Below, in pieces: positions 2,849 to 61,746 of a stretch of 64,000 nt of DNA. Source of the DNA: an uncultured Gemmatimonadota bacterium (GTDB taxonomy: Bacteria > JAAXHH01); the NCBI GenBank assembly GCA_951812955.1, contig OX638340.1, positions 2,336,001 to 2,400,000 on the forward strand. Reading direction: 5' to 3'. Below the pieces are notes generated by a model. That model worked only from the letters and a program-made list of their open reading frames with translations. It did no database searches and had not been told where the DNA came from. Position 1 is the first letter of the stretch. Every line of letters begins with the position of its first letter. The translations under genes and the position numbers were made by a program.

Positions 2849-2968
2849 AGTACCTGGCAGCCACCTTGATCAATACCGTACGGCCACTTCTTCTCAGTAC
2901 CGTACGGCCATCTCGATCAGTACCTGACAGCCACTCGTCCTCAGTACCGTACGGCCACCTTGATCACC
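2849..2968. repeat. degenerate ~23-bp tandem repeat x5. The last unit encodes the C-terminus and stop of the dehydrogenase gene.
   Basis: AGTACC-initiated units begin at 2849, 2873, 2896, 2919 and 2943 (AGTACCGTACGGCCA... and AGTACCTGRCAGCCAC...). The copy at 2894-2911 reads MAVRY-stop in frame, like the real VAVRY-stop at 2941. Confidence 0.7.
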
Positions 2969-4002
2969 TCGTCGGGCGCGTGGCGCATCTTGCCGTACGC
3001 TTCGGGCAATTCGTCCGGCGTCACGACGGGATCGGGCAGTCCGTGAGGATGGAGCGTGCCGTCCCGGAAGAGGCGTACCAGGGTTTCGAGTATACGGCCT
3101 TCTTCCCAGAACAGGCCGCGCTGCGGATGGCTGCAGGCCCGCGCCGAGACGATATCGATCTGATTGAAATGGAACTCCTCGCCCAGGTACAGGCCCTTCG
3201 CGTCTCCCAGGTAGAAAGCCAGGGGAACGACCTTGCCCGCGTACCGGGTCGCGCGGATGGCTTGATTGAGGGCGTGGTAGCTTCCGCTGGCCTCGATGGT
3301 GACGTCCGCGCCGTGTTCGAGCCACCTGCGCGACGCCATGCCGAAATCGCCGACCTCACCCGGATCGACCGCCAGGGTAGCCCCGTGCTCCCGGGCCAGT
3401 GCCCGCCGCCGCGCGATCGGGTCGACCGCCACCACGTCGACCGCACCGGACAGCCGCGCCAGCTGGACCGTGAAGAGCCCGATGGCGCCCATACCGAATA
3501 CGATGACCCGCTCGCCGATCCGCACCTGTCCGTCCCGCACGGCCGCCAGGGCGAAATTGGCGGGATCCATGCAGCAAGCCGCCGCCTCGGTCAACCCCGG
3601 GAGCAGCGGCTTGAAATGACGGCCCTGGTGGACCGTCCTGAATCCCCCGTAGCCATATACCCGGTCTCCTTCCTTCAGACCTTCGACTTCCTTGCCAGCG
3701 GCCATGACCGTCCCCACCGTCGTATTGCCCACCGGCTTCCAGGTCGTCGGGTCGTAAGGGTTCAGGCGTGACCGGTCGAAGACCCTGCCTTCCTGGTCCA
3801 TGGGTACGTTCGAGTATATGGACTCACCCGTGATCTCGCCCTTTTCCGTCCCGTGTTTCGCCGCGGAGAACTCGCTGCGGACACGGACTTCATCGGGGCC
3901 GAGTTCGCCCAGCGTATAGTGTTCCCAGCGGGGTTTAAAGGCGTTGTTGCAAACCAGTTGCAGCAGTTCGATGCCATCCACGGCGGCCATTCCGTCCTCC
4001 AT
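2941..4002 (-). CDS. Zn-dependent alcohol dehydrogenase (MDR superfamily, threonine/sorbitol dehydrogenase-like)
   Basis: 353 aa with a Rossmann GxGxxG (VIVFGMGAIGLF) and an MDR catalytic domain. The start is either the ATG at 4002 or a second M at 3990. Confidence 0.7.
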   Translation of the reverse strand: MEDGMAAVDGIELLQLVCNNAFKPRWEHYTLGELGPDEVRVRSEFSAAKHGTEKGEITGESIYSNVPMDQEGRVFDRSRLNPYDPTTWKPVGNTTVGTVMAAGKEVEGLKEGDRVYGYGGFRTVHQGRHFKPLLPGLTEAAACCMDPANFALAAVRDGQVRIGERVIVFGMGAIGLFTVQLARLSGAVDVVAVDPIARRRALAREHGATLAVDPGEVGDFGMASRRWLEHGADVTIEASGSYHALNQAIRATRYAGKVVPLAFYLGDAKGLYLGEEFHFNQIDIVSARACSHPQRGLFWEEGRILETLVRLFRDGTLHPHGLPDPVVTPDELPEAYGKMRHAPDEVIKVAVRY

Positions 4003-4027
4003 TATCGCTTCTTACGTCTATGCCCAA

Positions 4028-4085
4028 CTGCCCTTCGATGTTGCGGTGATGCCAGGCTGCCCCTCGATGTTGCGGTGATGCCAGG
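4028..4085. repeat. 29-bp tandem direct repeat x2 between the GH32 stop and the dehydrogenase start
   Basis: CTGCCC(T/C)TCGATGTTGCGGTGATGCCAGG occurs twice back to back. Confidence 0.8.
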
Positions 4086-4094
4086 ACGGTTTCA

Positions 4095-5636: not shown

Positions 5637-5684
5637 GATTGGAATCAGTGGCGCCTGGCGGTTTTATATGCCTCTACCGGTTTG

Positions 5685-5806
5685 GGTTGTCTCGGCCTGG
5701 CACGGGGCTGCCTCCGCCCGTCCGGGGTTGTCTCGGCCGGTTCCAGCTGTTTCGGCCCGGCTCCGGTTGTCTCGGCCTGGCACGGGGCTGCCTCCGCCCG
5801 TCCGGG
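5685..5806. repeat. 42-bp perfect direct repeat x2 (80-bp period), upstream of GH32 and downstream of nudC
   Basis: GGTTGTCTCGGCCTGGCACGGGGCTGCCTCCGCCCGTCCGGG occurs at 5685-5726 and 5765-5806, with a partial copy between them. Confidence 0.8.
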
Positions 5807-5816
5807 TCCTGTTTCG

Positions 5817-6873: not shown

Positions 6874-8094
6874 CTACAACAGGGTTTCCAGCGTGTTGAC
6901 GAAGGCCTCGTTCTCATCCGGCGTGCCGACGGTCACGCGCAAATACCCCTTCAGCCCCCACCACATGGCGTCGCCGATCCAGACCTTCCGCTCCTGGAGC
7001 GCATTGAACACGCGCTCGGATTCATCCCCGAGCTGAAACAGGACGAAACAGGAATCGCTGGGCGTATACGGGATGCCCAGCCGATCGAAGGCCTTGCCCA
7101 GGTACGCCTTGCCTTCCTCCACCGTCCTGCGGCTCCGCTCGTAATGGGCGTCGTCGTCCAGCGCGGCGATGGCGGCATGCAGACCCAGGTTGCTCGGGGG
7201 ACCGCCCAGGTTGTAGAGCGACAGTTTTCTTCTCAACCGGGGCGAAAGCACCGCGTATCCCACGCGCAGTCCAGCGAGGCCGTACACCTTGGAGAACGTC
7301 CGGGATACGATGACGTTTTCTTGCTCGAGGGCCAGGTATATGGCGTCGCGGTAGTCCGGGTCGGTCGTGTAATCGATATACGCTTCGTCGATGAACACCG
7401 TAACGCGTTCGGGCACGGACCGCACGAAATCCGCCAGTACGTCATGGTCCACCACCGTGCTGGTCGGGTTGTTGGGATTCGTCACGACCACGACCGTCGT
7501 GTTGTCGTTGATCCGCTCGTACATGGCGTCCAGGTTGTGCCGAAGGTCCCGGGTCAGACGTACGTTATTGACCTTGATGTCGGCCCCTTCTTCTTCCTTG
7601 AACCGCCTCCAGACGTCCGCGGTGTCGAAGTAGGCGGGCTGGGCCTGGACCAGCTCCGCCTTGTCCCGGACCGTCGCCAGGCCCACTGCGTGAAGAATCA
7701 TGCTGGAACCCGCGCTGAGCGCCACCCGACGGTTTTTCGTGACCTCTTCCCAGTTGTCCCACGTCGTCTCGGTTACCGGCAAGCCGTGTTTTCGCTCGAG
7801 GGCGTTGATCAGGACTTCCGACGGGTCCGGCATGGAACTCCAGTGGTAACGGTTCACGCCGAACATGCGGGCTGCGACGGCTGCGACGGCCCTGGGGGAC
7901 GGTCCCAGGGGGTTTTCGTTGGACGACAGGTTCACGTAGCCCGGCTCGATGCCGAATCCCTGTATGTCTTCCGGTTTCTTGCCCGAAAGCAGCGCTTGCG
8001 CCATGACCATGGGATCGGCGGCTAAGGCCCCCAAGCCCCCCAGCAGCGATCCCGCAATGAATCCGCGCCGCGTCAGGTTGGATTCTGGTTTCAT
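6874..8094 (-). CDS. class I/II PLP aminotransferase (histidinol-phosphate aminotransferase-like) with a twin-arginine (Tat) signal peptide
   Basis: The ORF starts on TTG at 8127. The likely ATG at 8094 is preceded by GGAGTGGG. The N-terminus MKPESNLTRRGFIAGSLLGGLGALAA is a Tat motif. The PLP-lysine region SRTFSKVYGLAGLRVGY is HisC-like. Confidence 0.7.
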   Translation of the reverse strand: MKPESNLTRRGFIAGSLLGGLGALAADPMVMAQALLSGKKPEDIQGFGIEPGYVNLSSNENPLGPSPRAVAAVAARMFGVNRYHWSSMPDPSEVLINALERKHGLPVTETTWDNWEEVTKNRRVALSAGSSMILHAVGLATVRDKAELVQAQPAYFDTADVWRRFKEEEGADIKVNNVRLTRDLRHNLDAMYERINDNTTVVVVTNPNNPTSTVVDHDVLADFVRSVPERVTVFIDEAYIDYTTDPDYRDAIYLALEQENVIVSRTFSKVYGLAGLRVGYAVLSPRLRRKLSLYNLGGPPSNLGLHAAIAALDDDAHYERSRRTVEEGKAYLGKAFDRLGIPYTPSDSCFVLFQLGDESERVFNALQERKVWIGDAMWWGLKGYLRVTVGTPDENEAFVNTLETLL

Positions 8095-9576: not shown

Positions 9577-9723
9577 TATGGCCGACGACTAGTACAGCCG
9601 GTCGATCACGACGTCCGCTCCGGAGTATGGCCGACGACTAGTACAGCCGGTCGATCACGACGTCCGCTCCGGAGTATGGCCGACGACTAGTACAGCCGGT
9701 CGATGACGACGTCCGCTCCGGAT
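9577..9723. repeat. 49-bp tandem repeat x3, each copy carrying the 3' end and stop of the upstream gene
   Basis: TATGGCCGACGACTAGTACAGCCGGTCGAT(C/G)ACGACGTCCGCTCCGGAG begins at 9577, 9626 and 9675. Each copy reads ..VVIDRLY-stop. The real stop is at 9687-9689. Confidence 0.85.
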
Positions 9724-13735: not shown

Positions 13736-14535
13736 GCGACGGCCTTGGGTACCGCCGTCTCCTCGGCTTCAACGTCCTGCCCTTCGTAAACGACCGACAT
13801 CCAGCCATTGAAACCGACCTGCTTCAGGATCCCGAGAATGCGTGGATAGTCCAGCCACGCTTCCTCGCCGGACTGGACGCGGTAGAACTTCGCCCGGACG
13901 TGCGCGGCGTGCGGCGCGCTTTTCTCCATACTTCCGTAGAAATCGTATGCGGGATCGGGATTGCCTCTCGCTCCCGATGCGCCCGGTGACCCGGCGTACT
14001 GGCCCGTGTCCAGTATATGGGTGAAGGAAGGGTGGTTCACTTCGGTGAGAATCCGCACAACGTCATCGCCCGTGCGGGTCACGCACCCGTGGTTGTGGTT
14101 GTGCAGTCCCACGGCGACGCCCCGGGCGGCCCCGTGGGCGACGACCTCCGAAATCGCGTGGATCATGCGGGTCCACGTAACGTCGGCGGGCGTATCGTCC
14201 CGGTCCCACGCGGCGAAGATGCGCACCATCGGCACGTGCATACGCGCGGCCACGTCGATCCAGTGGTTGACCATCCCGATCTCTTCGGCGATCTCACCGG
14301 CCGGCTTTCCGAAGTTGTTGCTGATGCCGAGGTAGGAGATGGCCAGCCCCCGCTGCAGGCATCGCATGCGCACGTCCCCCAGGTACGCGTCGTCTTCCGA
14401 CGCCAGCGCCCGGGTATGGATGTCGATCCCGTCGAGTTCCATTTCCCGGGCGCGGTCGATGAAGTCGAAAAGGTCCATGCGGCCTTCCGAAATGGCGTGA
14501 CCATAGCTTAAGGACATGCAACCGAGTTTAATCAC
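13699..14535 (-). CDS. sugar phosphate isomerase/epimerase (xylose-isomerase-like TIM barrel)
   Basis: 278 aa with a TIM-barrel pattern and HNH metal ligands. The GTG start at 14535 overlaps the stop of the upstream gene (GTGA). An alternative ATG lies at 14517. Confidence 0.65.
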   Translation of the reverse strand: MIKLGCMSLSYGHAISEGRMDLFDFIDRAREMELDGIDIHTRALASEDDAYLGDVRMRCLQRGLAISYLGISNNFGKPAGEIAEEIGMVNHWIDVAARMHVPMVRIFAAWDRDDTPADVTWTRMIHAISEVVAHGAARGVAVGLHNHNHGCVTRTGDDVVRILTEVNHPSFTHILDTGQYAGSPGASGARGNPDPAYDFYGSMEKSAPHAAHVRAKFYRVQSGEEAWLDYPRILGILKQVGFNGWMSVVYEGQDVEAEETAVPKAVAYLRRLLDEHGM

Positions 14536-15650
14536 TGCGCGTCTTCCTCTCTCCCGGTGGATGTGCTGTCGCCGGGCTGACTGTCGCCGGGCTGGCTGTC
14601 GCCGGACGGGCGGTCGCCGGGCTGGCTGTCGTCCATCGTGCAGGACTGCTCCAGGAAATAGACCATCACGTACTCTTCCGCCGTACGCTTGGGGCCGGGC
14701 AGGTTTCGGATCCGCCGAGCGTGGGCTTCGAGGTGGCGCTTGACGAAGAACAGATATAGCTGGGTGACGAAATCGGTCGCCGTATGATTGTAGAGGTACG
14801 TGGGCGACAGGGAAAGGGTGGTATCAACGCCCGGATAGGCCGCTGTTTGATGGCCTTCCAGCATTTCCTTGTTTATCGATTCGAGCTCCTCGGTGGACAC
14901 GCTGAACAGGAATTCGCGAAAGGCCTGCAACTCCTCCGGCGGACAGGTTTTCCTGGAGAAGTAATCGAGGAACTGGATGTCGCCGCCGGCGCGCATCAGG
15001 GCGAAGATCTCGGACACTCCCATGAGCGTGCCCAGTTGCACGGTGGTCTGCCGCCGAGCTTCCCAGGTGGTCTCCAGCACGGGCAGGAAGGCTTCGATGC
15101 GCCGGGAAAACCGGTCTTCCCAGAGTAAGGTCAGGGCGGTGGCCGCCTTGGTTCGGACGGCGCGGCCGAGACTGTCGTCGCAGACAATGGCGGTCAGTAG
15201 CGATTCGATCACCTTATTGTGTATGCTCTGGCTGATCCGGTTGCCGATTGCGTCTTCCACGGTCGTGAAATCCTTCCTGCCGCCCAGCGCCTCCTGGGCG
15301 ACCTGGTGCAGCAGCCGGAACAGATTGAGTCGCGCCATGACGTACACCTGCCCGACCGCGGCACGCATGGGCAGCAGCATGTCGACCGTGAACAGCGTGG
15401 CGTTGGAAAGCGCTTCGATCAGGGACGAGGCGTCTCTCCGCTGCTGGCCCAGGGACTGGCTTTGCAGCAGGGAGGGATAGGCGTTCATGACCTTTGCTAG
15501 ATCATTCAGCCGGGCGATGGATTCACAGATCGCCTGGTCGAGGTGCGCGGCGTGGGGATTTCTGCTTTCCTTCAGCGAATCGGTGATATCACAGATCAGC
15601 CGTTTGTCGTCGTGAGTCAGGACGGGCGTATCGAGGGTGGTTGTGTCCAA
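14532..15650 (-). CDS. hypothetical all-helical protein with a C-terminal DSQPGD repeat tail
   Basis: The ORF 14532..15914 overlaps rhaM out of frame. The most 5' plausible start after rhaM is the TTG at 15650, which has a GGGG element upstream. The C-terminus is DDSQPGDRPSGDSQPGDSQPGDSTSTG. No recognised family. Confidence 0.4.
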   Translation of the reverse strand: MDTTTLDTPVLTHDDKRLICDITDSLKESRNPHAAHLDQAICESIARLNDLAKVMNAYPSLLQSQSLGQQRRDASSLIEALSNATLFTVDMLLPMRAAVGQVYVMARLNLFRLLHQVAQEALGGRKDFTTVEDAIGNRISQSIHNKVIESLLTAIVCDDSLGRAVRTKAATALTLLWEDRFSRRIEAFLPVLETTWEARRQTTVQLGTLMGVSEIFALMRAGGDIQFLDYFSRKTCPPEELQAFREFLFSVSTEELESINKEMLEGHQTAAYPGVDTTLSLSPTYLYNHTATDFVTQLYLFFVKRHLEAHARRIRNLPGPKRTAEEYVMVYFLEQSCTMDDSQPGDRPSGDSQPGDSQPGDSTSTGREEDAQ

Positions 15651-15693: not shown

Positions 15694-16029
15694 CTATTCC
15701 AAGTAGAATACCTGCTCCAGCGGCACCATGTTCTCGTCGGCGTGCTTGCCGCCGAGGTTCTCGAAGTAGGGCGCCATGAACTCCTGCCATCGCGTGTTGA
15801 CGTCTTTTTCGGCCATGGTGGCCAGCGCTTTCTCGAAATCCGGTGTCTCGCAATATCCGAAGAGCAGCCCGTCCTCGCGCATGAAAAGCGAGTAGTTGTG
15901 CCATCCCGCTTCACGCAGGGCGTCCAGCAACTCCGGCCACACCTCCCGGTGGTGCTTCTTGTAGTCTTCGATCATGCCTTCCTTGACCTTCAGGATGAAT
16001 CCCACCCTTTGCATGGCGATCTCCTTCAT
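15694..16029 (-). CDS. rhaM: L-rhamnose mutarotase
   Basis: 111 aa matching the RhaM family fold (..WPEL...HNYS.F......LF.Y.E........EVFYLE). Confidence 0.75.
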   Translation of the reverse strand: MKEIAMQRVGFILKVKEGMIEDYKKHHREVWPELLDALREAGWHNYSLFMREDGLLFGYCETPDFEKALATMAEKDVNTRWQEFMAPYFENLGGKHADENMVPLEQVFYLE

Positions 16030-16035
16030 GCTTCG

Positions 16036-16094
16036 CGCATTATGCCTTGTAACTGACTATTTCTGTCACGCCTCGTGCTTGTAACTGACTATCT
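16036..16094. repeat. tandem duplicate (~30 bp) of the deacetylase gene 3' end, including a stop
   Basis: CTTGTAACTGACTAT(C/T)TC occurs twice. The upstream copy reads EIVSYKHEA-stop (real stop at 16066). The downstream copy reads EIVSYKA-stop. Confidence 0.7.
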
Positions 16095-16926
16095 CGATGT
16101 TCTCGTGGTCCGACCTGCGGGCCCGCTCGAGGGCGTAGGACGTGACCGGGAAATAATAGTGGGTTTCGGCGTTGAGCGAAATGAACCCCTCGGCGTAGGC
16201 GACGTTTCCCGCGCTGCCGAAAGCGCCATCGGAGGTCTCGATGCGTTTCCGCGCGTACGCGCCGCCGTAGCCCTGGCTCACGAGGGCGTCCAGCGAAGCC
16301 AGTTTTTTGTCGACCACGTCGGTGATATCGATGAAAACGTCGTTGTAATACCCGCCGCGGGCGTCCCACACGTTGCGCGGAAGACTCGCCGCGCCGCATC
16401 CCCAATAAAACACCTGTGCGACCTGGTGGGGCGGACGCCGGTCGCCCGGGTCGACGGAGCCGGCCAGTCCCATGGCGAGCATCACAATGCGGCCGGCCAC
16501 GGCGTGGGGGTTCCACGTGCCCCCGCCCTCGTCGGGGAAATGGGTGAGGATGATGTCCGGCTTCAATTCTCGCAGCAGGCGGGCAAGCTGGCGTACGATC
16601 GGCTTCTCGGGCAGCAGTACCGCGTCGTCGGCGCCCAGGAAATAGACGTCTTCCACACCGAGGGCGCGGCAGGCCGAGCGCACTTCTTCCGCCTTCACGT
16701 CGGACCGTTCCGCCATCATCTGTTTCAGCGTTTCCCCCTCCGGCACCTCCTCCGCGTGGAACATCTCGTCGCTGATCACCTTGTCGTGCACGCGGGCCCC
16801 ATGGGTCAATACCACGCAACCTACCCAGTCTCCCCTGGCCGCATGATGGGCCATGGCGCCGCCTGATTGATCGAAAATGTCGGCCGGATGAGCGCCGATG
16901 GACAATATCCGAAGCCGATCACTCAT
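16066..16926 (-). CDS. PIG-L/LmbE family N-acetylglucosaminyl deacetylase
   Basis: LSIGAHPADIFD is a variant of the AHPDDE motif. A downstream HxxH is present. 286 aa. Confidence 0.7.
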   Translation of the reverse strand: MSDRLRILSIGAHPADIFDQSGGAMAHHAARGDWVGCVVLTHGARVHDKVISDEMFHAEEVPEGETLKQMMAERSDVKAEEVRSACRALGVEDVYFLGADDAVLLPEKPIVRQLARLLRELKPDIILTHFPDEGGGTWNPHAVAGRIVMLAMGLAGSVDPGDRRPPHQVAQVFYWGCGAASLPRNVWDARGGYYNDVFIDITDVVDKKLASLDALVSQGYGGAYARKRIETSDGAFGSAGNVAYAEGFISLNAETHYYFPVTSYALERARRSDHENIEIVSYKHEA

Positions 16927-18377: not shown

Positions 18378-18500
18378 TGGTTGGGCCGCCGCGGAGAAAT
18401 TGATGGACGCGGCATAATTGACGGGCGCGGGAATTGTGGGACGCGGAGAGACCGGCGCGGAATGATGGGCGCGGGAATTTGACGGGCGCGGCGGCCGCGG
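18360..18500. repeat. array of ~8 degenerate 16-20-bp units derived from the MFS gene's last codons and stop
   Basis: The consensus is GCGCGG(G)AATTGATGG. Most units retain TGA. The array fills the whole convergent intergenic gap between the MFS stop (18377) and the enolase-family stop (18501). Confidence 0.75.
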
Positions 18501-20295: not shown

Positions 20296-20299
20296 GGGC

Positions 20300-21581: not shown

Positions 21582-21735
21582 GCCGCGCGTCGGGGGATGC
21601 CGCGTTCGGGGGATGCCGCGGAGGAAAAAAGCGCGTCGAAAAATATGGCGTGACGGACAGTCCGCGCGGCCAGAGCTTGTTTGACAACGGGAAAAACCAC
21701 GCACAGAACGGAATTCGTAACTCGAGGAGATATGA

Positions 21736-38526: not shown

Positions 38527-38538
38527 GGCGCATCTTCT

Positions 38539-47115: not shown

Positions 47116-47157
47116 ACGCGTGAATCAACGCCGTATATTAAACCGGACAGGCTTCGG

Positions 47158-48825
47158 GTGTCAAGGGATTTCACCGGTAAAAGGGTTACCGTACTGGGCC
47201 TCGGCGTGCTATCGGGCGGCGTCGCTTCCGCGCGGTATTTCGCCGAGCGGGGCGCGGACGTCACCGTTACGGATCTGCAGCCGGCAGAAGCGCTTCGGAA
47301 GTCCATCGACGCGCTCGCGCCATGGCCGGTCCGCTACGTGCTCGGTGAGCACCTCGATGAGGACATTACCGGAGCGGACCTCGTGGTGGTCGGCCCCGCC
47401 GTCCGGGACGACAGTCCCTTCCTCCGGCTGGCGCGGGACCGGGGCATTCCGCTGACCACCGAAACGAACCTGGTCTTCGAGAACTGCAGACGGCCCATCA
47501 TCGGCATTACGGGCAGCAACGGGAAGACCACGACCACCCGCCTTATCGGGGCGATGTTCCATGCGGTCGACCCGGCTACGCTCGTGGGCGGAAACATCGG
47601 CCGGTCCGTGCTCAACGAGCTTGCGGATCTGGACGTTGCAGATGGCCAGGACGAGGCGTCAGGTCCCGGCGCAACGCCCGGAACTTGCCCTGGTGCGACG
47701 CCCGGCGCCGGAAGCACTCGGGTCAGGCCGACAGATGAAAGCCCCGTGATTCTCGAGCTGTCCAGCTTCCAGCTTCACCGCCTGGCCTGGATCCGGCAAA
47801 GCCCCGGTGTGGCCGTGGTGACGAACCTGTCTCCGAATCACCTGGACTGGCACGGTACCTTCGACGCCTACGAAGAGGCCAAGCAACACATCGTGCATTA
47901 CCAGTCGCCGGAAGACGTGGTCGTCCTGAACGCCGATGATGAGCGGCTGCGCGGGTGGGCGGCGTGCTGTCCGGGACGGATAGCCTGGTTCAGCATGGAG
48001 GGACCGGTCGAGACCGGATGCTACGTGCGGGAAGGACAGGTAGTCTACCGCGGCCCAGCGGAGGGAAGTGGCGTATCGGAAAGTAGTGACGCATCGGAAG
48101 AACACGGCCCGGTGGACGGGCACGATTCAGCGGACGGAGGCGGTCCGGCCGAACGCGGCCTGCCAGGCGAGCGCGTCGTGTGTCCCGTGGACGCCCTCCG
48201 GCTCCCGGGTCCGCACAACCGGGCCAACCTGCTGGCCGCCGTGACGGCTGCGAGCCTGTGGGGGATCCCGGCATCGGTCATCCGGTCGACGGTCGAGGCG
48301 TTCCGCGGCGTGGAACATCGCCTGGAAGAAGTGGCCGTAATCGATGGCGTGGGGTACTATAACGATTCGGCCTGCACCACGCCGGCTTCGACGATCACGG
48401 CCCTCCGGGCTTTCGACGCACCAGTGGTCCTGATCGCAGGCGGGTACGACAAGGGTATGTCGTTCGACGGCATGGCATCGGTACTCGTCCGCCGCGCCCG
48501 GGCGGCCGTCCTGATCGGCGCGACCGCGGATGCGATCGAGGCAGCGATCGGGAAAGCCGGGGTGGCTCATGCGGCTGGCGGGAAAGCCAACGCGGCTCAT
48601 GCGACCGGCGGGAAAACCGGTACAACGGACGCACTGACCATCGCCCGTTCCGATTCGCTCGATGACGCCGTGCGGCAGAGCGCCGGCCTGGCGCGGCCTG
48701 GAGACGTGGTGGTGTTGTCACCCGGCTGTGCGAGTTACGACATGTTCACCAACTACGAGGAACGCGGACGGCGGTTCAAGGAAGCCGTGGCCGCGCTGGC
48801 GCGAAACGCGGACGGTAACGCGTAG
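47158..48825 (+). CDS. murD: Mur ligase family, UDP-N-acetylmuramoylalanine--D-glutamate ligase-like
   Basis: GKRVTVLGLG...SG and GITGSNGKTTTT P-loop motifs. Low-complexity inserts (GPGATPGTCPGATPGAG; GKAGVAHAAGGKANAAHATGGKTG). GTG start. Not in a dcw cluster. Confidence 0.6.
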   Translation: MSRDFTGKRVTVLGLGVLSGGVASARYFAERGADVTVTDLQPAEALRKSIDALAPWPVRYVLGEHLDEDITGADLVVVGPAVRDDSPFLRLARDRGIPLTTETNLVFENCRRPIIGITGSNGKTTTTRLIGAMFHAVDPATLVGGNIGRSVLNELADLDVADGQDEASGPGATPGTCPGATPGAGSTRVRPTDESPVILELSSFQLHRLAWIRQSPGVAVVTNLSPNHLDWHGTFDAYEEAKQHIVHYQSPEDVVVLNADDERLRGWAACCPGRIAWFSMEGPVETGCYVREGQVVYRGPAEGSGVSESSDASEEHGPVDGHDSADGGGPAERGLPGERVVCPVDALRLPGPHNRANLLAAVTAASLWGIPASVIRSTVEAFRGVEHRLEEVAVIDGVGYYNDSACTTPASTITALRAFDAPVVLIAGGYDKGMSFDGMASVLVRRARAAVLIGATADAIEAAIGKAGVAHAAGGKANAAHATGGKTGTTDALTIARSDSLDDAVRQSAGLARPGDVVVLSPGCASYDMFTNYEERGRRFKEAVAALARNADGNA

Positions 48826-48865: not shown

Positions 48866-49717
48866 ATGGCCATAGAAACCGTGGGCGTCATCGGATGTGG
48901 GCTGATGGGGGCGGGCATCACGCAGGTTTGCGCCGAGGCGGGGTACCGGACGATCGTCCGCGAGGCGTCAGGCGAATTGGTAAGCGGAGGCATCAGCCGA
49001 ATCGACGGCGTCCTGTCGCGCAACGTATCTAAGGGGAAGATGTCGGCAGACGAAAAGGCGGCCGTACTCGGACGCATCACGGGCACCACCGAATTCGACG
49101 ATCTGGCCGATTGCGACCTGGTGATCGAAGCGGTCACCGAGAACCTGGAAACCAAGCAGGAGGTCTTCCGGATCCTGGACGGCATCGCCTCGCCGGAGGC
49201 CATCCTGGCCAGCAACACCTCATCCATCTCCATCACCGAACTGGCTTCGGCGACGGACCGGCCGGAGCAGGTCCTGGGACTGCATTTCTTCAATCCCGTG
49301 CCCGTGATGCTGCTTATCGAGATGGTCATCGGACTGCAGACCAGCGAGAAGACCGTGGCAACGGCCCGGCAGTTCGGAGAATCACTGGGCAAGCAGGTGA
49401 TCGAAGTCAGGGACACGCCCGGTTTCATCGTAAACTACCTCCTCATCCCGTACCTGCTCGACGCCGTGCGGCTGGTCGAATCGGGCGTGGCTACGAAGGA
49501 GGATATCGACGCGGGAATGGTCCTGGGGTGCATTCACCCGCTCGGTCCGCTCAAGCTCCTCGACTTCATCGGACTGGACACCACGCTGTACATCGCGGAA
49601 GTGCTCTACGACGCCTTCCGCACCGACCGGTACGCCGCACCGCCTCTGCTCCGTCAGATGGTCTCCGCCGGCATGAACGGGCGCAAGAGCGGGCGGGGGT
49701 TCTACGGGTATGGTTGA
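48866..49717 (+). CDS. hbd: 3-hydroxybutyryl-CoA dehydrogenase
   Basis: VGVIGCGLMGAGI NAD-binding motif plus a C-terminal 3HCDH domain. SD GGAGGAT. Confidence 0.8.
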   Translation: MAIETVGVIGCGLMGAGITQVCAEAGYRTIVREASGELVSGGISRIDGVLSRNVSKGKMSADEKAAVLGRITGTTEFDDLADCDLVIEAVTENLETKQEVFRILDGIASPEAILASNTSSISITELASATDRPEQVLGLHFFNPVPVMLLIEMVIGLQTSEKTVATARQFGESLGKQVIEVRDTPGFIVNYLLIPYLLDAVRLVESGVATKEDIDAGMVLGCIHPLGPLKLLDFIGLDTTLYIAEVLYDAFRTDRYAAPPLLRQMVSAGMNGRKSGRGFYGYG

Positions 49718-49752
49718 ACTGCGCAAAGGGTATGATTGAACTGCGCAAAGCC
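49706..49752. repeat. 22-bp tandem duplicate of the hbd 3' end, including the stop
   Basis: GTATGGTTGAACTGCGCAAAGG and GTATGATTGAACTGCGCAAAGCC. The real stop is at 49715-49717. Confidence 0.75.
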
Positions 49753-49807: not shown

Positions 49808-49857
49808 GTCGATTGGATCTGAGTCGATTGGATCTGTTTCACCTGTACAATTGTACA
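49808..49857. repeat. 15-bp tandem x2 (GTCGATTGGATCTGA) followed by the 14-bp perfect palindrome TGTACAATTGTACA (49844-49857)
   Basis: In the intergenic region upstream of the M24 peptidase. The palindrome is a candidate operator. Confidence 0.6.
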
Positions 49858-51079: not shown

Positions 51080-51098
51080 AGCAGACAAGCCCGATACG

Positions 51099-51716
51099 CT
51101 AAGCAATAGACGTAAGAAAACTGCGCACATCACCCAGAACGGGATGATCCAGATCCCAGTAACCGTTCTTCGCCGCCACACCTACGGATACGTGAGGGTC
51201 CGGCTTTGTAGCCAAGTATGCGTGGGCACGGGCTTTATATGGTCTGTCTACGGACAGGCCAGGTATCGCTTTGACACAATTTAAAAAGTCGTCGATACAC
51301 TGATCCTCTGGTTTGTCTTTGAAACTTTCGCATAGAAGTGTCTCCAGCATACCCGGACGATTGTCGCCAGGCAAAATCAACACCGTCACTTTCGGACTGG
51401 TATCGGTAGGAAAACCAGGTTGCGCAGGTAAAGGTAAATCTGCATTTTCCAAGGACGATCTAACACTTTGGAACGCACTCACGGCGCATGTCTCCGCATC
51501 GCGAACGATGCCGATACTTCGCACGTTTGATTCGAAACCCGACGATGCCACGATGGCACTAAGGAACCCGCGGAGTCCAGTCACGCCACCAAAATCGTGA
51601 ATCTGGATATCCACTTGTTCTAGAGACAAGTGCTCAATGAACGCTTCGAAAAAGTTAAACTCGTCCCTGCCCTCCACAAGAAGCTGGGTTTCCGATTCGA
51701 TTTGTATTCGCGCCAT
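51099..51716 (-). CDS. DUF4276/RloB-like (Toprim-like) protein, putative nuclease partner
   Basis: The start at 51716 lies 1 nt after the ATPase stop. The N-terminal LLVEGRDEFNFF resembles the DUF4276/Toprim VEGxxE motif. Low GC. Confidence 0.5.
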   Translation of the reverse strand: MARIQIESETQLLVEGRDEFNFFEAFIEHLSLEQVDIQIHDFGGVTGLRGFLSAIVASSGFESNVRSIGIVRDAETCAVSAFQSVRSSLENADLPLPAQPGFPTDTSPKVTVLILPGDNRPGMLETLLCESFKDKPEDQCIDDFLNCVKAIPGLSVDRPYKARAHAYLATKPDPHVSVGVAAKNGYWDLDHPVLGDVRSFLTSIA

Positions 51717-51717
51717 A

Positions 51718-52755
51718 TTAACGAACATCCAGGCCGTGTTGAACGGCAGCGTCGATGGACTCGTGCTCATAGGTAACGCAACGAATCATTTCCTCTACGT
51801 ATTCGAGCCTGTGCAGACTGAACCTATCGGCACTCAATGCTTCATGGGCCGCCTCCACGCATTCTTGGCTGTGAGTGGTCGCAAATACCTGTACGTGGAA
51901 AAGTTTGGCCGCTTCATCTACCGCTCGCCAGACGTCAGCAAGAACGGAGTGATGAAGGCCGTTTTCGATCTCGTCCACGAGTACGAGACCATTCGGCGTG
52001 GTGCCTATGGCAAGGACGAAGCGAGCGATTTGTGTCATGCCTTCACCCATAGATGGCAGAGGTATTAGTTCGCTCAACCCGATGTCGCCCCATATCATGG
52101 GCGAACCGTTTGAGTAAATGACTTCGATGCTTTCCAGTCTAGGTTCAACGGCTTTCATCGCACTTAAAAGTATATCTCCCCGCTTGTGCCTTCTCAGGTT
52201 TGCAAGTCTGGACGCATCATCGTGCAGGCTCCTTTTTAATCGCGGAAGGAGAATGATCGCCGGAAATTGAAAGCCATGAGTTGGTTGCTCTATTTCAAAC
52301 TTATCCCCTCTAATGTGAATGTGACTGTCGGTACCAACACCTGAATTATCGAAATACGTGAAGGTCAACGTACAATCATCAGAATAATCCATTCCCGGGC
52401 GATCTAAGGGAACTTCGGTTTGGGGCTGCCACGACGACGAAATCTGTAATTCCATTTCACCATACGTTGAATGTGTTCCTGCTATCTCGATGGTACTCCC
52501 CGTATCCAACCTGTTAAAAAGCTGATCCCAGACATTCCATCCCGATTCACCGAGGGTTCCTTGTTCCAGACCACGGACGACATGAGGATCTGATGCCATT
52601 CGCGCATTTCCAGCGCTTCCCAGCAGGAATACAGCCTCGAGCAAACTGGTCTTCCCCGAGTTGTTCTTGCCAGCAATGAGATTGATATCGCTCAGGCGGT
52701 TAACTTCGAGTCTGTTGAAGCAGCGGAAACCATGTATCCGCAAGCTTTCTATCAT
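51718..52755 (-). CDS. AAA_21/ABC-type ATPase (RloA/AbiL-i-like)
   Basis: Walker A GKNNSGKTSLLEA, Walker B LVLVDEIENGLH, and ATTHS. 345 aa. Visibly lower GC than the flanks. Confidence 0.65.
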   Translation of the reverse strand: MIESLRIHGFRCFNRLEVNRLSDINLIAGKNNSGKTSLLEAVFLLGSAGNARMASDPHVVRGLEQGTLGESGWNVWDQLFNRLDTGSTIEIAGTHSTYGEMELQISSSWQPQTEVPLDRPGMDYSDDCTLTFTYFDNSGVGTDSHIHIRGDKFEIEQPTHGFQFPAIILLPRLKRSLHDDASRLANLRRHKRGDILLSAMKAVEPRLESIEVIYSNGSPMIWGDIGLSELIPLPSMGEGMTQIARFVLAIGTTPNGLVLVDEIENGLHHSVLADVWRAVDEAAKLFHVQVFATTHSQECVEAAHEALSADRFSLHRLEYVEEMIRCVTYEHESIDAAVQHGLDVR

Positions 52756-52980
52756 TATGATTACTCCATCTGCATCAGATGTTCCGATCCGTTCGGGGAA
52801 AACAGGGACTCCTTTAAAAGATCTCTTGTAACATACATAGTACCGGATTCGCTAGAAAAACCAAATCTTTCCTGGACTATTCTACTCTGTACTGAATACC
52901 CGACTTCGCAGCGCACTTTCAGCGTCTGGAAGTGGGATCAGGCAAGGTAAGTCACGATCTTCCAGACGCCATTTCCGGCT

Positions 52981-54408: not shown

Positions 54409-54507
54409 TTTCTTGTCCCTTTCCTGGCCTGCCGCCTGCTATACCTGGCCTGCAGCCTCGACTGCTATTCCTGCCCTGCCACCTGCTATTCCTGGCCGGA
54501 ACTGCCC
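54409..54507. repeat. ~21-26-bp degenerate tandem units x4 copying the fic 3' end, including the stop
   Basis: TTCCTGGCCTGCCGCCTGCTA-like units. CTATTCCTGGCC is the real stop (54486). CTATTCCTGCCC and CTATACCTGGCC are the upstream copies. Confidence 0.7.
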
Positions 54508-55433
54508 AATCTTTGATCCGTAGGTGTGCTTCGAGGCCGATCCTGTCCCCGGTTATCGAATGCCCTCCCGATCTTCCAGACCCCTTTCTCACGAAATGCG
54601 GGAATGGACTGCCGGCGGGCGGCGTTGGTTACGGCGGGCGCCGACAGGCCGTTCTGCCTGATGTAGTCCGAAAGCCGGATAATTTCTGCGCCTTTCAAGT
54701 AGCTCAACCACTTGTGCAGTGATTCCATTAGTCCAAGGAATACGATATTTTCCATAGCCTTAGTCGATGCGTTATCGCCATATTCCCTGAACGCCTGGTA
54801 GTACCTTTCCTTTTCGGAATTTCGAATGATGATACGCGGCAGACCGAGTTGCAGAAGCTGGAAATTCATGATGACCCGTCCCAGTCTGCCGTTTCCGTCA
54901 CAGAAGGGATGTATATATTCGAAAGCCAGATGAAAAAGTGCGATCTTATCCAGAAAGTAGGAATCCAGGTCGCTGACATAGTCGATCAGGAGATTGTCCA
55001 TCATGCGTTCCACGTGCTCGGGCTCGGGCGCAATATGCGTGCCCACTCGCACGTATTCGCCTTTCTGTCGGAATCGTCCGGCGATGGAATCATCGATGCC
55101 GCCAATCAGCATCTGATGGAATCCCAGGATAAGGGTCTCACTCAACTCGCTGTCTTTCGCCCTGCTACGTTTGTATTCCATGACCCGGGCAAGGTTCTTC
55201 GCCTCGTAGACTTCACGGATGGATACGTTGCGGGAGAGCATCTGTTCCAACAGGATCCGCTCTGTTTCTTCGAGCGACAGCGTGGAATTCTCGATGGCGT
55301 TCGAGTTGTATACGCCCTCGGGTATCTCAACCTCGTCGATCATGGACAAGAGCGAGTCCTTGCCCATTCGCAAGATGTCGAATTCACGCTTCAGCGATCG
55401 TATGCGGTTTTTCATTGGTCGTGTAGAGGGCAT
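54486..55433 (-). CDS. fic: Fic family protein (class II, autoinhibited AMPylator-type)
   Basis: HPFCDGNGRLGR Fic motif and an N-terminal SNAIEN inhibitory motif ((S/T)xxxE(G/N)). The start is at MPSTRP (55433). The AT-rich promoter region at 55434-55560 has low GC. Confidence 0.7.
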   Translation of the reverse strand: MPSTRPMKNRIRSLKREFDILRMGKDSLLSMIDEVEIPEGVYNSNAIENSTLSLEETERILLEQMLSRNVSIREVYEAKNLARVMEYKRSRAKDSELSETLILGFHQMLIGGIDDSIAGRFRQKGEYVRVGTHIAPEPEHVERMMDNLLIDYVSDLDSYFLDKIALFHLAFEYIHPFCDGNGRLGRVIMNFQLLQLGLPRIIIRNSEKERYYQAFREYGDNASTKAMENIVFLGLMESLHKWLSYLKGAEIIRLSDYIRQNGLSAPAVTNAARRQSIPAFREKGVWKIGRAFDNRGQDRPRSTPTDQRLGSSGQE

Positions 55434-55597
55434 ATAAGTTAAATTAGTATATTCACTTATTATTGTCAAAATAATGTGAATAATCTCGTACATATCGTTA
55501 TCATTAACTAATTTATTAGCAATATAGGTTAACATACTCCCAATCCTCCCGACCCGAGGCCCCGGGGGGATTTCCACCGGAGCGGAGGGCCATCCCC

Positions 55598-55653
55598 GGG
55601 GCATCCTCGAGGCCCTCCAAAGCGCCATCACTGGGGCATCCTCGAGGCCCTCC
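55598..55653. repeat. 21-bp GC-rich direct repeat x2 (GGGGCATCCTCGAGGCCCTCC, 35-bp period)
   Basis: Upstream of the GNAT gene at 55770. Confidence 0.75.
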
Positions 55654-55769
55654 CAGGCCGGGCTCCTCTCAATCCGATCCCGGTTCCATGCATCCAGCCG
55701 CGTGTTAAATCAGCCGCATGTTAATCAAGTAACCCGACAAAAAAGGCCATCCACCCAGGACCCGTTTCC

Positions 55770-58941: not shown

Positions 58942-60417
58942 TCAACTGTCCATCATCATATCATACAGATCCTGCTGCCGTTTCATCGCTTCCCGGTAGC
59001 GGTCCCGGTTCGCCGGATCCGGTTCAAAGGTCTTTCCCATGGGGGCCGGCGCGGCGGACAGGTCTTCCAGCGCTCCGGAGGCCTCCAGCGCCAGCAGCGC
59101 GGCGCCGCGGCTCGAGGCCTCGGTCACGGCCGAGGCGGTGATGGGCCGCTCCAGTACGTCGGCCAGCATCTGCATCCAGACGGGCGACTGCAGCAGGCCG
59201 GCGCCCGACGCGACGATCTCGCCGGAGTCTCCCCAGATTGACCGCAACCGGCCATGGATGTTCGCGAAACAGTAGGCCGTGGCCTCCAGGCTGGCCCGCA
59301 TGACGTCAAGGGGCGTGGTGTGCAGCGTCATGCCGGTAATGGCCGCCCTCGCGGCGTCGTGCCAGCCCGGGCTGCGCTCACCCGCCCAGAATGGCAATAC
59401 CGTGAGGCCGTGGCTGTCCGGCGCCATCTCGCCCAGATCCTGCTCGACCCTTTGCTCGTCGGAGAGGCGCAACGTGTCGCGCATCCAGCCGTAGACGTTC
59501 CCGCCGTTGCTCAGGGCGCCGCCCATCAGGATCCTCCGGCGGTCCGACCGGTAACACCACAGGCCTTCGGGGATCGCGAACTCCGCGGCCCGCCTCATGA
59601 CCCGCATGGCGCCTGAAGTGCCCACCATCAGGGCGATACGATCCTCGTCCACGCATCCGCTGCCGATGTTGTTGCAGGCGCCGTCGCCAATGGCGGGATA
59701 CCAGGAAGCTCCGGCCAGGACCGGCCAGCGGGACGCGAATTCGTCCTTCAGCCCCCGGACCGGCTCGTCCACGTCGCACAAGGGCGTCAGTTGGGCCCGT
59801 TCCACCGGCAGCGCGGCCAGCGTCTCGTCGTCCCAGTCGCAGGTGTGCGCGTTGAACAACCCCGTGCCAGAAGCCATGGAAACGCTGCAGGCCGGCGCGC
59901 CGAACCATCTGAGGAAGAGGTATTCTCCGATGGACATCCAGCGTTCCACCCGGGCGAAACGACCGGGATCATTCCGGGCGATCCAGCATATCTTTGCAGG
60001 GAGGTAGGAGGCGTGAAGCACGCAGCCGGTACGCCTGTGCGTCGCGCCGATGTCGAAGCGCTCGGCCAGATCGGGGATAACGGACCGCGGCCGCGTATCG
60101 GCCCAGCTGATCAGCGGGGTCACGGCACGGCTTCCCTCCACGCCAACCACGTTGTGCCAGAAAGTGGTCATGGCCACGCCGTCGATCGCGGTATTGCCGC
60201 CCGCGGCGCAGAAGTCATCGAGCACCGAGCCCACCTCCGCCACCAGGCGGTCGGCGTCGATAAAGACCCCGCCGCCCGGCGTGGTCTCCATGCCGTAGGG
60301 TTTCTGAAAGACGGGCGACGCGATCCCCGCGGTCCGGTCGAACAGGATCGCCCGCACGGACGACGTGCCGATGTCGATGGCCAGTACGCGGGGCGGCTGA
60401 ATCGTGTCGCGGGGCAT
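58942..60417 (-). CDS. FGGY-family carbohydrate kinase (gluconokinase/xylulokinase-like)
   Basis: VLAIDIGTSSVRA N-terminal motif. The start is at 60417 (MPRDT...), with an alternative at 60480. The ORF to 60765 is over-extended. Confidence 0.7.
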   Translation of the reverse strand: MPRDTIQPPRVLAIDIGTSSVRAILFDRTAGIASPVFQKPYGMETTPGGGVFIDADRLVAEVGSVLDDFCAAGGNTAIDGVAMTTFWHNVVGVEGSRAVTPLISWADTRPRSVIPDLAERFDIGATHRRTGCVLHASYLPAKICWIARNDPGRFARVERWMSIGEYLFLRWFGAPACSVSMASGTGLFNAHTCDWDDETLAALPVERAQLTPLCDVDEPVRGLKDEFASRWPVLAGASWYPAIGDGACNNIGSGCVDEDRIALMVGTSGAMRVMRRAAEFAIPEGLWCYRSDRRRILMGGALSNGGNVYGWMRDTLRLSDEQRVEQDLGEMAPDSHGLTVLPFWAGERSPGWHDAARAAITGMTLHTTPLDVMRASLEATAYCFANIHGRLRSIWGDSGEIVASGAGLLQSPVWMQMLADVLERPITASAVTEASSRGAALLALEASGALEDLSAAPAPMGKTFEPDPANRDRYREAMKRQQDLYDMMMDS

Positions 60418-60676
60418 GGACGATGCCTGACTATCGGGTCGATGAGAAACAGCGTCCTGATGCTGCGCGGACTTATCCATGGACAATGGACGCAGCGGAC
60501 GCGGATACGAGAGCGGGAAACGGCTGCAGGCGGTATTATATCGTAGGGCGGTTCGCGTTTCAAGCCAAAAGCTACAGACCAAGAAAGGATTGACAGCCGG
60601 ACCTCTGCCGCTTTTTTTAAAGCGGTCTACGTGCCATGTACAACCCAGGTATACTCGCGAGGAGAAGCAGCATAAG

Positions 60677-61702
60677 ATGTCTTCCAACCTGAAAGAAGTC
60701 GCCCGGGCCATGGTCGCTCCCGACAAGGGGATACTGGCGGCGGATGAAAGCAGCGAAACGATCAAGAACCGGTTCGACAGTATCGGACTGCCGTCGACAA
60801 CGGAGAACCGCCGCGCCTATCGCCACATGCTGTTCAGCACCGAAGGCATGGAGGAATTCATCAGCGGCGTCATCCTCTACGAAGAGACGCTGCGGCAGAA
60901 GGCTCTCGACGAGGCCGAAACTCCGTTTCCGAAGCTGTTGTCCGACAAGGGCGTGATTCCCGGGATCAAGGTAGATGCCGGGATCCATGACCTGGCCGGT
61001 TTTCCGGGAGAGAAAGTCACCGAGGGGCTCGACGGCCTGCGGGCGCGCCTGAAGCGATACGGCCGGCTAGGCGCCGCCTTTGCGAAGTGGCGAGCGGTCA
61101 TTACCGTGGGCAAGGGTATTCCTTCGGATGTCTGCATCGACGCGAACGCCCACGCGCTGGCGCGGTACGCCGCCCTGTGCCAGGAAAACGGCATCGTACC
61201 GATCGTCGAACCCGAGGTGCTGATGGAAGGCGACCACACCATTTATCGGTGCGACGAGGTGACCGGTGTCACGCTGCGGCACGTGTTCGAGGCCCTGGCC
61301 GTGCATGGTGTCAAGCTGGACGGGATCGTCCTGAAGCCCAGTATGGTCATCTCGGGCTCGGAATGTCCTGAACAGGCTTCCGTGGAGGAAGTCGCGCGCC
61401 GCACGGTGAATAACTTCCTGCGTAACGTTCCGCGGGATGTGCCCGGCATCGCCTTTCTTTCGGGCGGGCAGTCCTCGGAGACCGCCACGGCGCACCTGAA
61501 CGCCATGAACGCCATGTTCGGCGAACTGCCGTGGGAACTCAGCTTCTCCTACGGCCGCGCCCTGCAGGCGGCTCCGCTGCGAGCATGGGGTGGAGATTCC
61601 GCCAATTTCGAGGCGGGGCAGAAGGCTTTTTACCACCGTGCCATGTGCAACAGCTACGCGCGGACCGGCCAGTACAGCGCCGACATGGAAGACGCGGCCT
61701 AG
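60677..61702 (+). CDS. fba: class I fructose-bisphosphate aldolase
   Basis: GILAADES motif and a Schiff-base Lys region. The ATG at 60677 has a GGAGAAG SD. Confidence 0.8.
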   Translation: MSSNLKEVARAMVAPDKGILAADESSETIKNRFDSIGLPSTTENRRAYRHMLFSTEGMEEFISGVILYEETLRQKALDEAETPFPKLLSDKGVIPGIKVDAGIHDLAGFPGEKVTEGLDGLRARLKRYGRLGAAFAKWRAVITVGKGIPSDVCIDANAHALARYAALCQENGIVPIVEPEVLMEGDHTIYRCDEVTGVTLRHVFEALAVHGVKLDGIVLKPSMVISGSECPEQASVEEVARRTVNNFLRNVPRDVPGIAFLSGGQSSETATAHLNAMNAMFGELPWELSFSYGRALQAAPLRAWGGDSANFEAGQKAFYHRAMCNSYARTGQYSADMEDAA

Positions 61703-61746
61703 CGTTTCGGCCAGTACAGCGCCGACATGGAAGACGCGGCCTAGCG
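61667..61746. repeat. perfect 38-bp tandem duplication of the fba 3' end, including the TAG stop (42-bp period)
   Basis: GGCCAGTACAGCGCCGACATGGAAGACGCGGCCTAGCG occurs at 61667-61704 and 61709-61746. Confidence 0.9.

Follow-up and report, generated by a model that had tools for sequence, protein, structure and literature searches.

The spacer between rnc and fpg in mycobacteria (ETR-F/VNTR3239) measures 1-20 bp in most of the species listed and 54 bp in Mycobacterium leprae, whereas in the M. tuberculosis complex it is filled by 279-358 bp of tandem repeats (PMC2734929). MIRUs, the interspersed repetitive units of mycobacteria, are tandem intergenic units of 40-100 bp with stop/start signals that interlock the flanking genes (PMC12548453; PMC2734929). 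The microhomology-mediated tandem duplications (MTDs) of yeasts and Escherichia coli need microhomology pairs of 4-25 nt and were detected about 20-fold less in E. coli than in Schizosaccharomyces pombe (PMC8639346). In the nuclear genome of rice, tandem duplications showing little or no microhomology have been attributed, according to the summary in PMC8639346, to patch-mediated double-strand breaks repaired by non-homologous end joining, and the Beggiatoaceae possess intergenic direct repeats of a fixed heptamer, TAACTGA, at 169 loci, for which a regulatory role has been proposed (PMC4679880). Here we describe a 64,000-nt stretch of DNA (contig OX638340.1, positions 2,336,001-2,400,000; hereafter the window) from an uncultured Gemmatimonadota bacterium, in which about one gene in six is followed by decaying tandem copies of its own 3' end, stop codon included, referred to below as gene-tail echoes.

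Like ETR-F/VNTR3239, the echoes are head-to-tail, locus-specific repeats of tens of bp that fill operon spacers only a few bp long in related species, and their copy number varies among close relatives; they differ in that the unit is usually the gene's own tail with its stop, in the share of window genes affected (10-18%), in their clade-wide recurrence, and in that most arrays have few copies (2-5) and decay fast. Tandem intergenic units and a stop/start interlock with the flanking genes are shared with MIRUs, but the latter constitute one dispersed, apparently mobile family at 41 loci, whereas the echo units are unshared and derived from the adjacent gene. MTDs resemble the echoes in being short tandem duplications which frequently form and revert, with depletion from essential coding sequence and survivors that are in frame, although many young echo events show only 0-1 nt of microhomology. 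The duplications of rice, a eukaryotic case, are likewise short and blunt-junctioned, with occasional filler such as that found here at the fba gene, and the Beggiatoaceae arrays are also intergenic direct repeats with stop codons in their units, the echo unit differing in being locus-own and taken from the neighbouring gene. Our literature search found no description of gene-tail echoes as a clade-wide feature, either in sponge-associated Latescibacterota or in another group, which is not proof of novelty.

Clade-wide excess of gene-tail echoes

The window has 62% GC and is densely coding, with 56 genes called by a home-made codon-usage predictor. Arrays were called with Tandem Repeats Finder (TRF) and by direct reading of the sequence, and the last 45 nt of each gene were aligned against the 220 nt downstream. 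As a statistic, the 18-nt tail of each gene, including the stop, was compared with the 150 nt downstream at thresholds of at least 13/18 and at least 15/18 (strong echoes), the nulls being gene starts against their own upstream DNA, tails against the downstream DNA of other genes (tail-swap) and gene interiors. Tail matches of at least 13/18 were found in 8 of 55 window genes, three of them at 17-18/18, compared with 0/55 for gene starts, 24/2970 (0.8%) in the tail-swap null and 22/731 for gene interiors.

When species-representative genomes were scanned, the syntenic block was recovered in 17 long loci of about 21 kb, the closest with 94.6% DNA identity and the others with 81-85%, and the other end of the window is covered by four metagenome contigs; the loci of relatives and controls carry labels of the type L001. 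The relatives are uncultured metagenome-assembled genomes (MAGs) labelled Latescibacterota, Gemmatimonadetes or 'bacterium', many of them complete chromosomes of ~3.7-4.0 Mb. The complete chromosomes of the clade include OY762445.1, OZ241920.1, OZ241838.1, OY843748.1 and OZ220749.1, together with OZ252103.1, OZ253560.1 and OZ245326.1, which have no echoes. Their isolate names resemble those of sponge and coral symbiont bin sets; the records themselves name no hosts. The clade set (427 kb, 400 genes) was compared with 54 loci from other phyla retrieved in the same search (1.01 Mb, 831 genes), using an identical pipeline with a TRF score of at least 40 and a period of at least 7.

Non-coding arrays reach 1.45 per kb of intergenic DNA in the clade against 0.5 in other phyla. 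Tail echoes of at least 13/18 follow 35 of 369 clade genes (9.5%) and 11 of 735 control genes (1.5%, close to the 0.9% null), and the difference is wider for strong echoes (19/369 versus 1/735); at the 5' side, echoes of at least 15/18 number 4/369 and 1/735, respectively. Stop-spanning arrays were detected at 22 of 400 clade genes (plus one across both stop and start) and at 13 of 831 control genes (plus two), whereas start-spanning arrays number 6 and 2. The sequence-only reading that preceded this analysis had proposed that duplications survive only where coding is undisturbed, and these ratios of 22:6 in the clade and 13:2 in the controls agree with it; the presence of the excess in unrelated controls points to a general selective filter. 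Perfect duplications (d of at least 10) are about 2.5 times denser in the clade (26 in 469 kb) than in other phyla (22 in 1011 kb).

The trait is lineage-specific and tracks neither phylum nor assembly type, because a subclade within the set (L006, L009, L011 and L012, three of the four being complete chromosomes) has 0 of 80 genes echoed, with denser coding (93-96%), and two further Latescibacterota chromosomes among the controls (L027, L031) also lack echoes. Unusual in degree, the phenomenon affects about 10-18% of genes, as compared with about 1% in other groups; the pattern is genuine and statistically robust, and independent assemblies reproduce it. The analysis thus demonstrates duplications that recur independently and turn over, a clade-specific excess of them, and a preponderance of stop- over start-spanning ones.

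The explanation that we favour, with a probability of roughly 0.6, is that the echoes are locus-specific minisatellites of the variable-number tandem repeat (VNTR) kind, reflecting a heavy load of short tandem duplications throughout the lineage, on which selection acts as a filter in tight operons. According to this explanation, any sequence at a gene junction could undergo a short (about 10-75 bp) tandem duplication, the copies of which would then expand, contract and decay; the lineage carries several times more non-coding duplications than other bacteria. A unit lying across a stop would leave the upstream open reading frame (ORF) and the spacing between the downstream ribosome-binding site (RBS) and ATG intact and would be invisible to selection, whereas duplications inside genes or over start codons and RBSs would be removed, the start-spanning ones creating a decoy start and displacing the promoter. 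With ancestral spacers of ~11-70 nt consisting mostly of an RBS, a tolerated duplication of 20-50 nt would be almost forced into the gene tail, ending between stop and RBS, and the echoed stops would be passengers that are present while copies are young and later decay. Slippage, or fill-in and end-joining, may be the molecular route, and selection rather than mutation bias would lie behind the 3' excess.

Arrays at individual junctions and their turnover

The sequence-only reading listed ten genes with tandem copies of their own last codons, identified with gene names that Pfam confirmed. Nine of these ten were upheld as copies of the gene's own 3' tail; the retropepsin was not, since the perfect 17-bp x2 duplication at 24086-24120 is a plain intergenic one, lying 94 nt past the stop of the Asp-protease gene. 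A weaker case that had been suggested for DUF2064 (47109-47132) involves no duplication; L080 has the identical sequence there, and L083 departs from it at three bases. That each copy retains the stop holds only for young copies; echoes with a stop codon were found at seven loci (ADH, sec, PIG-L, MFS, hbd, Fic and fba), whereas at two others the stop is decayed or shifted. TRF called arrays at most of the listed coordinates, direct reading bringing out the others, and its periods in the window range from 13 to 49 bp, with 1.9-4.9 copies. Orthologous junctions were extracted by anchoring on flanking coding sequence; they are 11-70 nt long and repeat-free in several lineages and carry independent arrays, with differing periods and copy numbers, in others.

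The tail of the zinc alcohol dehydrogenase (Zn-ADH) gene, ending in VAVRY* (stop 2941-2943, minus strand), is followed by four echoes within 2847-2968, recovered by TRF, reading and tail alignment alike, with a period of 23-24 nt and positions at about 2917, 2894, 2870 and 2847; three retain TGA. The orthologous junction is repeat-free and 61-69 nt long in L003-L006, and in some lineages the ADH-to-ankyrin junction extends only about 11-19 nt after the stop. Other periods occur in L010, L015 and L022: compared with 24 bp in the window, L010 has a period of 18 bp and L015 one of 11 bp (x6). The gene directly downstream (1757-2824) encodes a 355-aa ankyrin-repeat protein; eukaryote-like repeat proteins such as those of the ankyrin-repeat type are typical of sponge symbionts.

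At the gene for a secreted protein with an Ig_CycH domain (sec; stop 9687-9689, minus strand), TRF and reading identified a 49-bp x3 array (9577-9723, 98%), the unit of which comprises the last 34 nt of the gene, TAG and 12 nt more, the two distal copies being identical. There are three copies in the window, two in L002, three with decayed stops in L001, and many units of unequal length in L003. The PIG-L tail (stop 16066-16068, minus strand) has one echo of ~30 nt (16027-16063; whole array 16027-16095, from reading and tail alignment), which is inserted between the stop and the RBS of rhaM, retains TGA and ends in CATGA. The window has two copies and L002 three, and in L013 the spacer is exactly 11 nt, AGGAGATCACC, merely an RBS. 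This spacer, together with a different rhaM start (16015), argues against an ancestral ATGA overlap of the two genes; the longest-ORF start of rhaM (15694-16029) is probably wrong, the comparison with L013 favouring 16015.

The MFS transporter tail, GCGGCGAAATTGA, is echoed about 6-7 times at 18360-18500 (plus strand) with a period of 14-18 and progressive decay, as seen by TRF, reading and tail alignment, and the array occupies the whole convergent spacer up to the MR_MLE stop (18501); in relatives this spacer is 47-50 nt long or contains echoes of the other gene's tail. Two loci named in the sequence-only reading have echoes with a decayed or shifted stop, namely Amidohydro_2 (25110-25207, plus strand; stop 25134-25136), with a degenerate echo at 25173-25192, about 66 nt downstream, and the second of two PhyH genes (PhyH-2; 38414-38560, minus strand; stop 38539-38541), with echoes at 38491-38514 and 38414-38443.

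The duplication at the hbd tail (49706-49750, plus strand) is a 22-bp x2 array with the unit GGGTATGrTTGAACTGCGCAAA, in which the stop is retained; it was detected by TRF, reading and tail alignment. L080 and L083 have one copy, and the distal window copy keeps the ancestral GAT, the in-gene copy having since changed to GGT, so that the duplication is derived in the window. The Fic tail (stop 54486-54488, minus strand) has 2-3 echoes of about 21-26 nt within 54421-54497, two of them with TAG, giving about three copies as compared with about five in L081. The divergent region between the Fic and GNAT-domain genes (55416-55769) is AT-rich in one half and GC-rich in the other, the latter containing a direct repeat of 21 nt (GGGGCATCCTCGAGGCCCTCC x2) as well as a repeat of 16 nt; about 220 nt of the region are missing from L080, and the 16-mer occurs four times in L081. 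Finally, the tail of the class-I fba gene (61666-61746, plus strand) has a perfect 39-nt duplicate including TAG, with 3 nt of filler (TTT) between the copies; the fba end of L080 carries a different duplication, of ~80 nt as against 42 nt in the window, and its echo TAG has become TGG. The fba ORF (60479-61702) probably also has too early a start, since the class-I aldolase Pfam match begins only at residue 71 of the 407-aa product; the true start is probably internal (60677 according to the predictor). Exact-protein searches with the fba and hbd products gave no match, probably owing to the choice of start codon or to a source genome missing from the collection searched.

Five arrays are absent from the earlier list. 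One spans a stop: at the first PhyH gene (PhyH-1; stop 21579-21581, plus strand), TRF and tail alignment revealed a 16-bp x3.2 array (21568-21620) with echo stops decayed to GGA. The others, all found by TRF, exclude the stop or lie elsewhere. A 29-bp x2 array (4028-4085, minus strand, 96%) begins 10 nt past the GH32 stop (4095), a junction that has stop-containing echoes in L007 and L005 and a 29-nt spacer in L006, L011 and L054. An array of about 40 bp x3 (5684-5806, minus strand) begins 11 nt past the NUDIX stop (5817), where L002 has a 21-bp x3.6 array and L006 a spacer of 18 nt, and a 13-bp x3 array (31743-31780, plus strand) begins 15 nt past the stop at 31728. The fifth, a 15-bp x2 array (49808-49836, plus strand), belongs to the 5' region of an M24 peptidase gene and has three copies in L083 and none in L082. 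Just upstream of the same gene (start 49862), a perfect 14-bp palindrome, TGTACAATTGTACA (49844-49857), looks like a candidate transcription-factor operator because L080, L082 and L083 all preserve it within an otherwise variable spacer.

Repeats also occur within coding sequence. An in-frame 30-bp x2.4 repeat (48549-48620, plus strand, TRF) lies in the C-terminal domain of a MurD-like ligase (47158-48825); the region measures 111 nt in the window and 141 nt in L080, which has one more unit, the repeat is lacking in L082, and L083 carries a different insert. This repeat is a product of the same process, tolerated inside a coding sequence. Another in-frame repeat, of 15 bp x4.5 (14565-14631), lies 33 nt ahead of the stop in the gene for a 372-aa protein without Pfam match (14532-15650, minus strand).

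Comparison of orthologous loci, which the sequence-only reading had suggested as a check, revealed copy-number differences at sec, PIG-L, hbd, fic and fba (L001, L002, L080, L081), and the ongoing turnover that it envisaged is evident from copy numbers that differ from those of relatives 93-97% identical in DNA and from perfect copies standing beside decayed ones. Older echoes lose their stops: distal sec copies in L001 and L002 read ACGG or CTGG in place of the CTAG that holds the stop. Stops in echoes are therefore passengers of recent duplication and not conserved features.

Head-to-tail units of about 10-100 bp, copy-number polymorphism among close relatives and a unit unique to its locus are the marks of locus-specific bacterial VNTRs, and all three were found. 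Arrays with three to five perfect copies, such as those of 19 bp x5.3 in L013 and 19 bp x3.3 in L011, show that a repeat, once formed, grows in the manner of any VNTR. The L013 array contains TCA/TGA and lies at the end of the ROK gene (7614-7714), where the window (~11.9 kb) has no repeat and where L016 (7632-7696), L017 (7640-7701) and L019 (7611-7689) also carry young arrays.

Many young two-copy events have junction microhomology of only 0-1 nt (L007 2639, L008 1097, L010 5007, window 24086, L016 7632 and hbd). Of the 24 perfect two-copy events in the clade, 0-2 extra nt are present in 11 and 3-8 in 6; partial third copies account for the larger values, and the controls are similar. To judge from the junction sequences, this is closer to what fill-in or end-joining at staggered breaks would leave than to slippage of the classical kind between direct repeats, and it agrees with the explanation cited for the rice duplications (PMC8639346). 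Low microhomology was considered as a clade-specific signature and dropped, the distribution being the same in controls.

Selection, hotspot and other explanations

The possibility that the arrays stem from assembly or polishing, or from the collapse of mixed strains, has to be considered because all sequences derive from metagenome assemblies. In addition, runs of N fall exactly within the sec and GH32 tail arrays of L005 (3232-3587 and 8898-9232), a fragmented MAG scaffold that the repeats appear to have broken. Nevertheless, independent assemblies, both complete (L002, L003, L004) and fragmented (L001, L007, L016-L019, L080, L081), contain the same arrays with substitutions and copy numbers particular to each lineage, which effectively excludes an artefact, as the sequence-only reading had surmised with regard to mixed strains. 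The copies are, moreover, diverged, which is not expected of an artefact, and complete-chromosome relatives (L006, L009, L011) have no echoes.

The units are locus-specific and share no sequence with each other (best between-unit identity 0.69), and elsewhere in the window they have only isolated chance matches of 13-16-mers, consistent with the earlier view that these are local duplications and not a dispersed family of repetitive extragenic palindromic (REP) or miniature inverted-repeat (MITE) elements. For a MIRU/REP/MITE family, there is no common consensus among loci, and folding near 0 in 11 of 12 arrays without any Rfam match argues against a palindromic or terminal-inverted-repeat structure. 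Footprints of mobile elements, either such a dispersed family or long, variable target-site duplications left after excision of insertion sequences, would account for the blunt junctions (0-1 nt of microhomology) and the variable unit lengths, and intergenic insertion sequences have been reported to be non-randomly placed relative to the orientation of neighbouring genes (PMC2942039). However, there is no transposase among the 40 window proteins scanned, and 3-7 copies with nested periods fit repeat expansion, not a single insertion and excision, so that such an origin is highly improbable. Diversity-generating retroelements were rejected: no reverse transcriptase was found among the 40 scanned proteins, which do not cover every ORF, the differences between copies include G/C, A/G and C/T, and the units are 13-49 nt long and directly abutting. 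CRISPR-like arrays were also rejected on the evidence.

Might the arrays be selected for function, as fail-safe stops, as structures of 3' untranslated regions (UTRs) or terminators, or as a means of lengthening spacers and uncoupling the translation of neighbours? They stand at many operon junctions, where they stretch spacers from about 11-20 nt to 50-150 nt, and young echoes retain their stops. Yet no more than 2 of 10 echoed stops share the gene's frame, fewer than the one-third that chance would give, echo stops have been lost in orthologous arrays (L001, L002, L080), and periods of 49, 41, 22, 16 and 14 are not multiples of 3; a published survey of bacteria found additional stop codons not to be under selection (PMC6764699). 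RNA folding of 12 arrays, expressed as minimum-free-energy (MFE) z-scores against dinucleotide shuffles, gave values from -2.9 to +1.8 with an average of about -0.3. Only the ADH array (z -2.9), the unit of which holds the palindrome CCGTACGG, folds better than its shuffles, and 11 of 12 arrays give no structure signal. No Rfam family matched in the window, and in a scan of the window no terminator-like site overlaps any array, the counts of such sites equalling the shuffled expectation. The proposal that duplication occurs at termination sites also fares poorly, because the ancestral spacers, operon junctions of 11-20 nt that hold only an RBS, are too short for a terminator and a promoter. 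Furthermore, four relatives are entirely without arrays at the same junctions (0/80 genes). The backup-stop and structure readings, both raised in the sequence-only reading, are largely refuted, and selection for any of these functions is very doubtful; the echoes look like harmless leftovers of unusually frequent short duplications and not like a new functional element.

Nor are the arrays confined to 3' ends, where the sequence-only reading saw them cluster: 5' UTRs and divergent promoter regions contain them too, and some lie in frame within genes. Immediately upstream of the GH32 start, L011 carries a perfect array of 19 bp x3.3; in L081 the divergent region lying upstream of the gene at 55770 contains one of 16 bp x4, L083 has a 19-bp x3.5 array in the 58.8-kb spacer, and about eight lineages carry arrays of 11-13 bp in the sec/CSD divergent region. 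When array positions are mapped to window coordinates, almost every spacer of the 20-kb block is hit in some lineage.

The placement of the arrays was compared with a geometric model in which segments of the observed unit sizes are distributed uniformly on a repeat-collapsed map. With the first annotation, 13-14% of events touching non-coding DNA would span a stop, 12-14% a start, and 71-73% would be purely intergenic; with the refined window annotation the stop share rises to 18%, or to 22% if start-spanning events are assumed to be lethal. Several findings weigh against the filtered-load explanation favoured above. Stop-spanning events make up 10 of 15 in the window (binomial p of 4e-5 and 3e-4) and 22 of 62 in the clade, as against the 18-22% expected, so that an approximately 3-fold excess over purely intergenic events is not accounted for by geometry alone, and a purely geometric model was rejected for this shortfall. 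To accommodate it, a filter model must assume either constraint over most of the other 5.5 kb of long intergenic DNA or less frequent duplication of DNA that is AT-richer. Moreover, the perfect, that is, youngest duplications are 2.5 times denser than in controls, yet strong tail echoes are about 38 times commoner, which means that rate alone is insufficient for the pattern. The explanation also assigns no cause to the raised duplication rate, the gene starts on which it relies are the output of a home-made predictor, and the clade loci are orthologous, so that their counts are not statistically independent events.

Three candidates stand side by side for the excess: constraint on the long intergenic DNA by promoters, operators and UTRs; less frequent duplication of intergenic DNA that is AT-richer; and a real hotspot near stops. 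As to composition, long intergenic DNA has 52.5% GC whereas the arrays mostly have 60-79%, and GC-rich microhomology pairs are far more prone to duplication (PMC8639346). A true mutational hotspot just downstream of stops could possibly arise where RNA polymerase free of ribosomes backtracks or forms R-loops and conflicts with replication, the resulting breaks being repaired by fill-in or end-joining that duplicates the gene tail; alternatively, GC-rich gene tails may simply duplicate more than AT-rich promoter DNA, to which the GC difference lends support. Stop-spanning events at 3-3.7 times the uniform expectation, three more arrays that begin 10-15 nt past a stop, and gene ends hit independently in several lineages (at least three origins at ADH, two at fba) all speak for a hotspot, as do the 0-1 nt microhomology of many young events and the 3-nt fba filler, which end-joining or fill-in fits better than classical slippage. 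Nonetheless, arrays are also common in the divergent and 5' regions described above, recurrence that reaches nearly all spacers of the 20-kb block is not stop-specific, and the stop- over start-spanning excess is present in the unrelated controls too, where low microhomology is just as frequent. We consider such a hotspot unlikely.

A more specific version would place breaks or replication restarts at stalled, ribosome-free RNA polymerase in this symbiont clade, with repair that copies the tail and a lineage-specific change in the repair repertoire, the latter being suggested because the sister subclade (L006, L009, L011, L012) is without arrays. This version is somewhat more doubtful again; if it were true, stop codons would imprint a mutational signature at the DNA level in a bacterium. 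The filtered load of VNTR-like tandem duplications remains our preferred reading, an explanation that is most likely ordinary in kind.

Other features of the window and biological meaning

Apart from the arrays, the window contains a variable island of lower GC (51080-52980). Its minus strand encodes an AAA_21/AAA_15 ATPase (51718-52755) together with a DUF3226 protein (51099-51770) that has a weak match to the OLD-like TOPRIM domain; the two resemble an anti-phage defence pair. The corresponding interval measures 1931 nt in the window, about 1.2 kb in L080 and L083, and 102 nt in L082. A candidate toxin-antitoxin module, missed by the codon-usage caller, consists of Gp49 (HigB-like) and HTH_37 antitoxin-like proteins encoded with a 4-nt overlap (36691-37391).

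In practical terms, gene callers can be misled by the spurious small ORFs and wrong stops that echoes bring with them, and short-read scaffolds break at the repeats, as the N-gaps of L005 illustrate; the arrays would serve well as strain-typing markers. For the organisms, they open a route to new C-termini, the VAVRY* end of the window's ADH protein corresponding to VAVRWT* in L015, and to longer operon spacers. They also make a selection filter visible, with stop-spanning duplications persisting and start-spanning ones removed. The unexplained stop-proximal excess and the echo-free sister subclade make whole-genome follow-up worthwhile: a clade with a high duplication load and a sister subclade with no echoes as a built-in control constitute a natural experiment, in which comparison of the repair-gene sets of echo-rich and echo-free members could identify what normally suppresses such duplications in bacteria.

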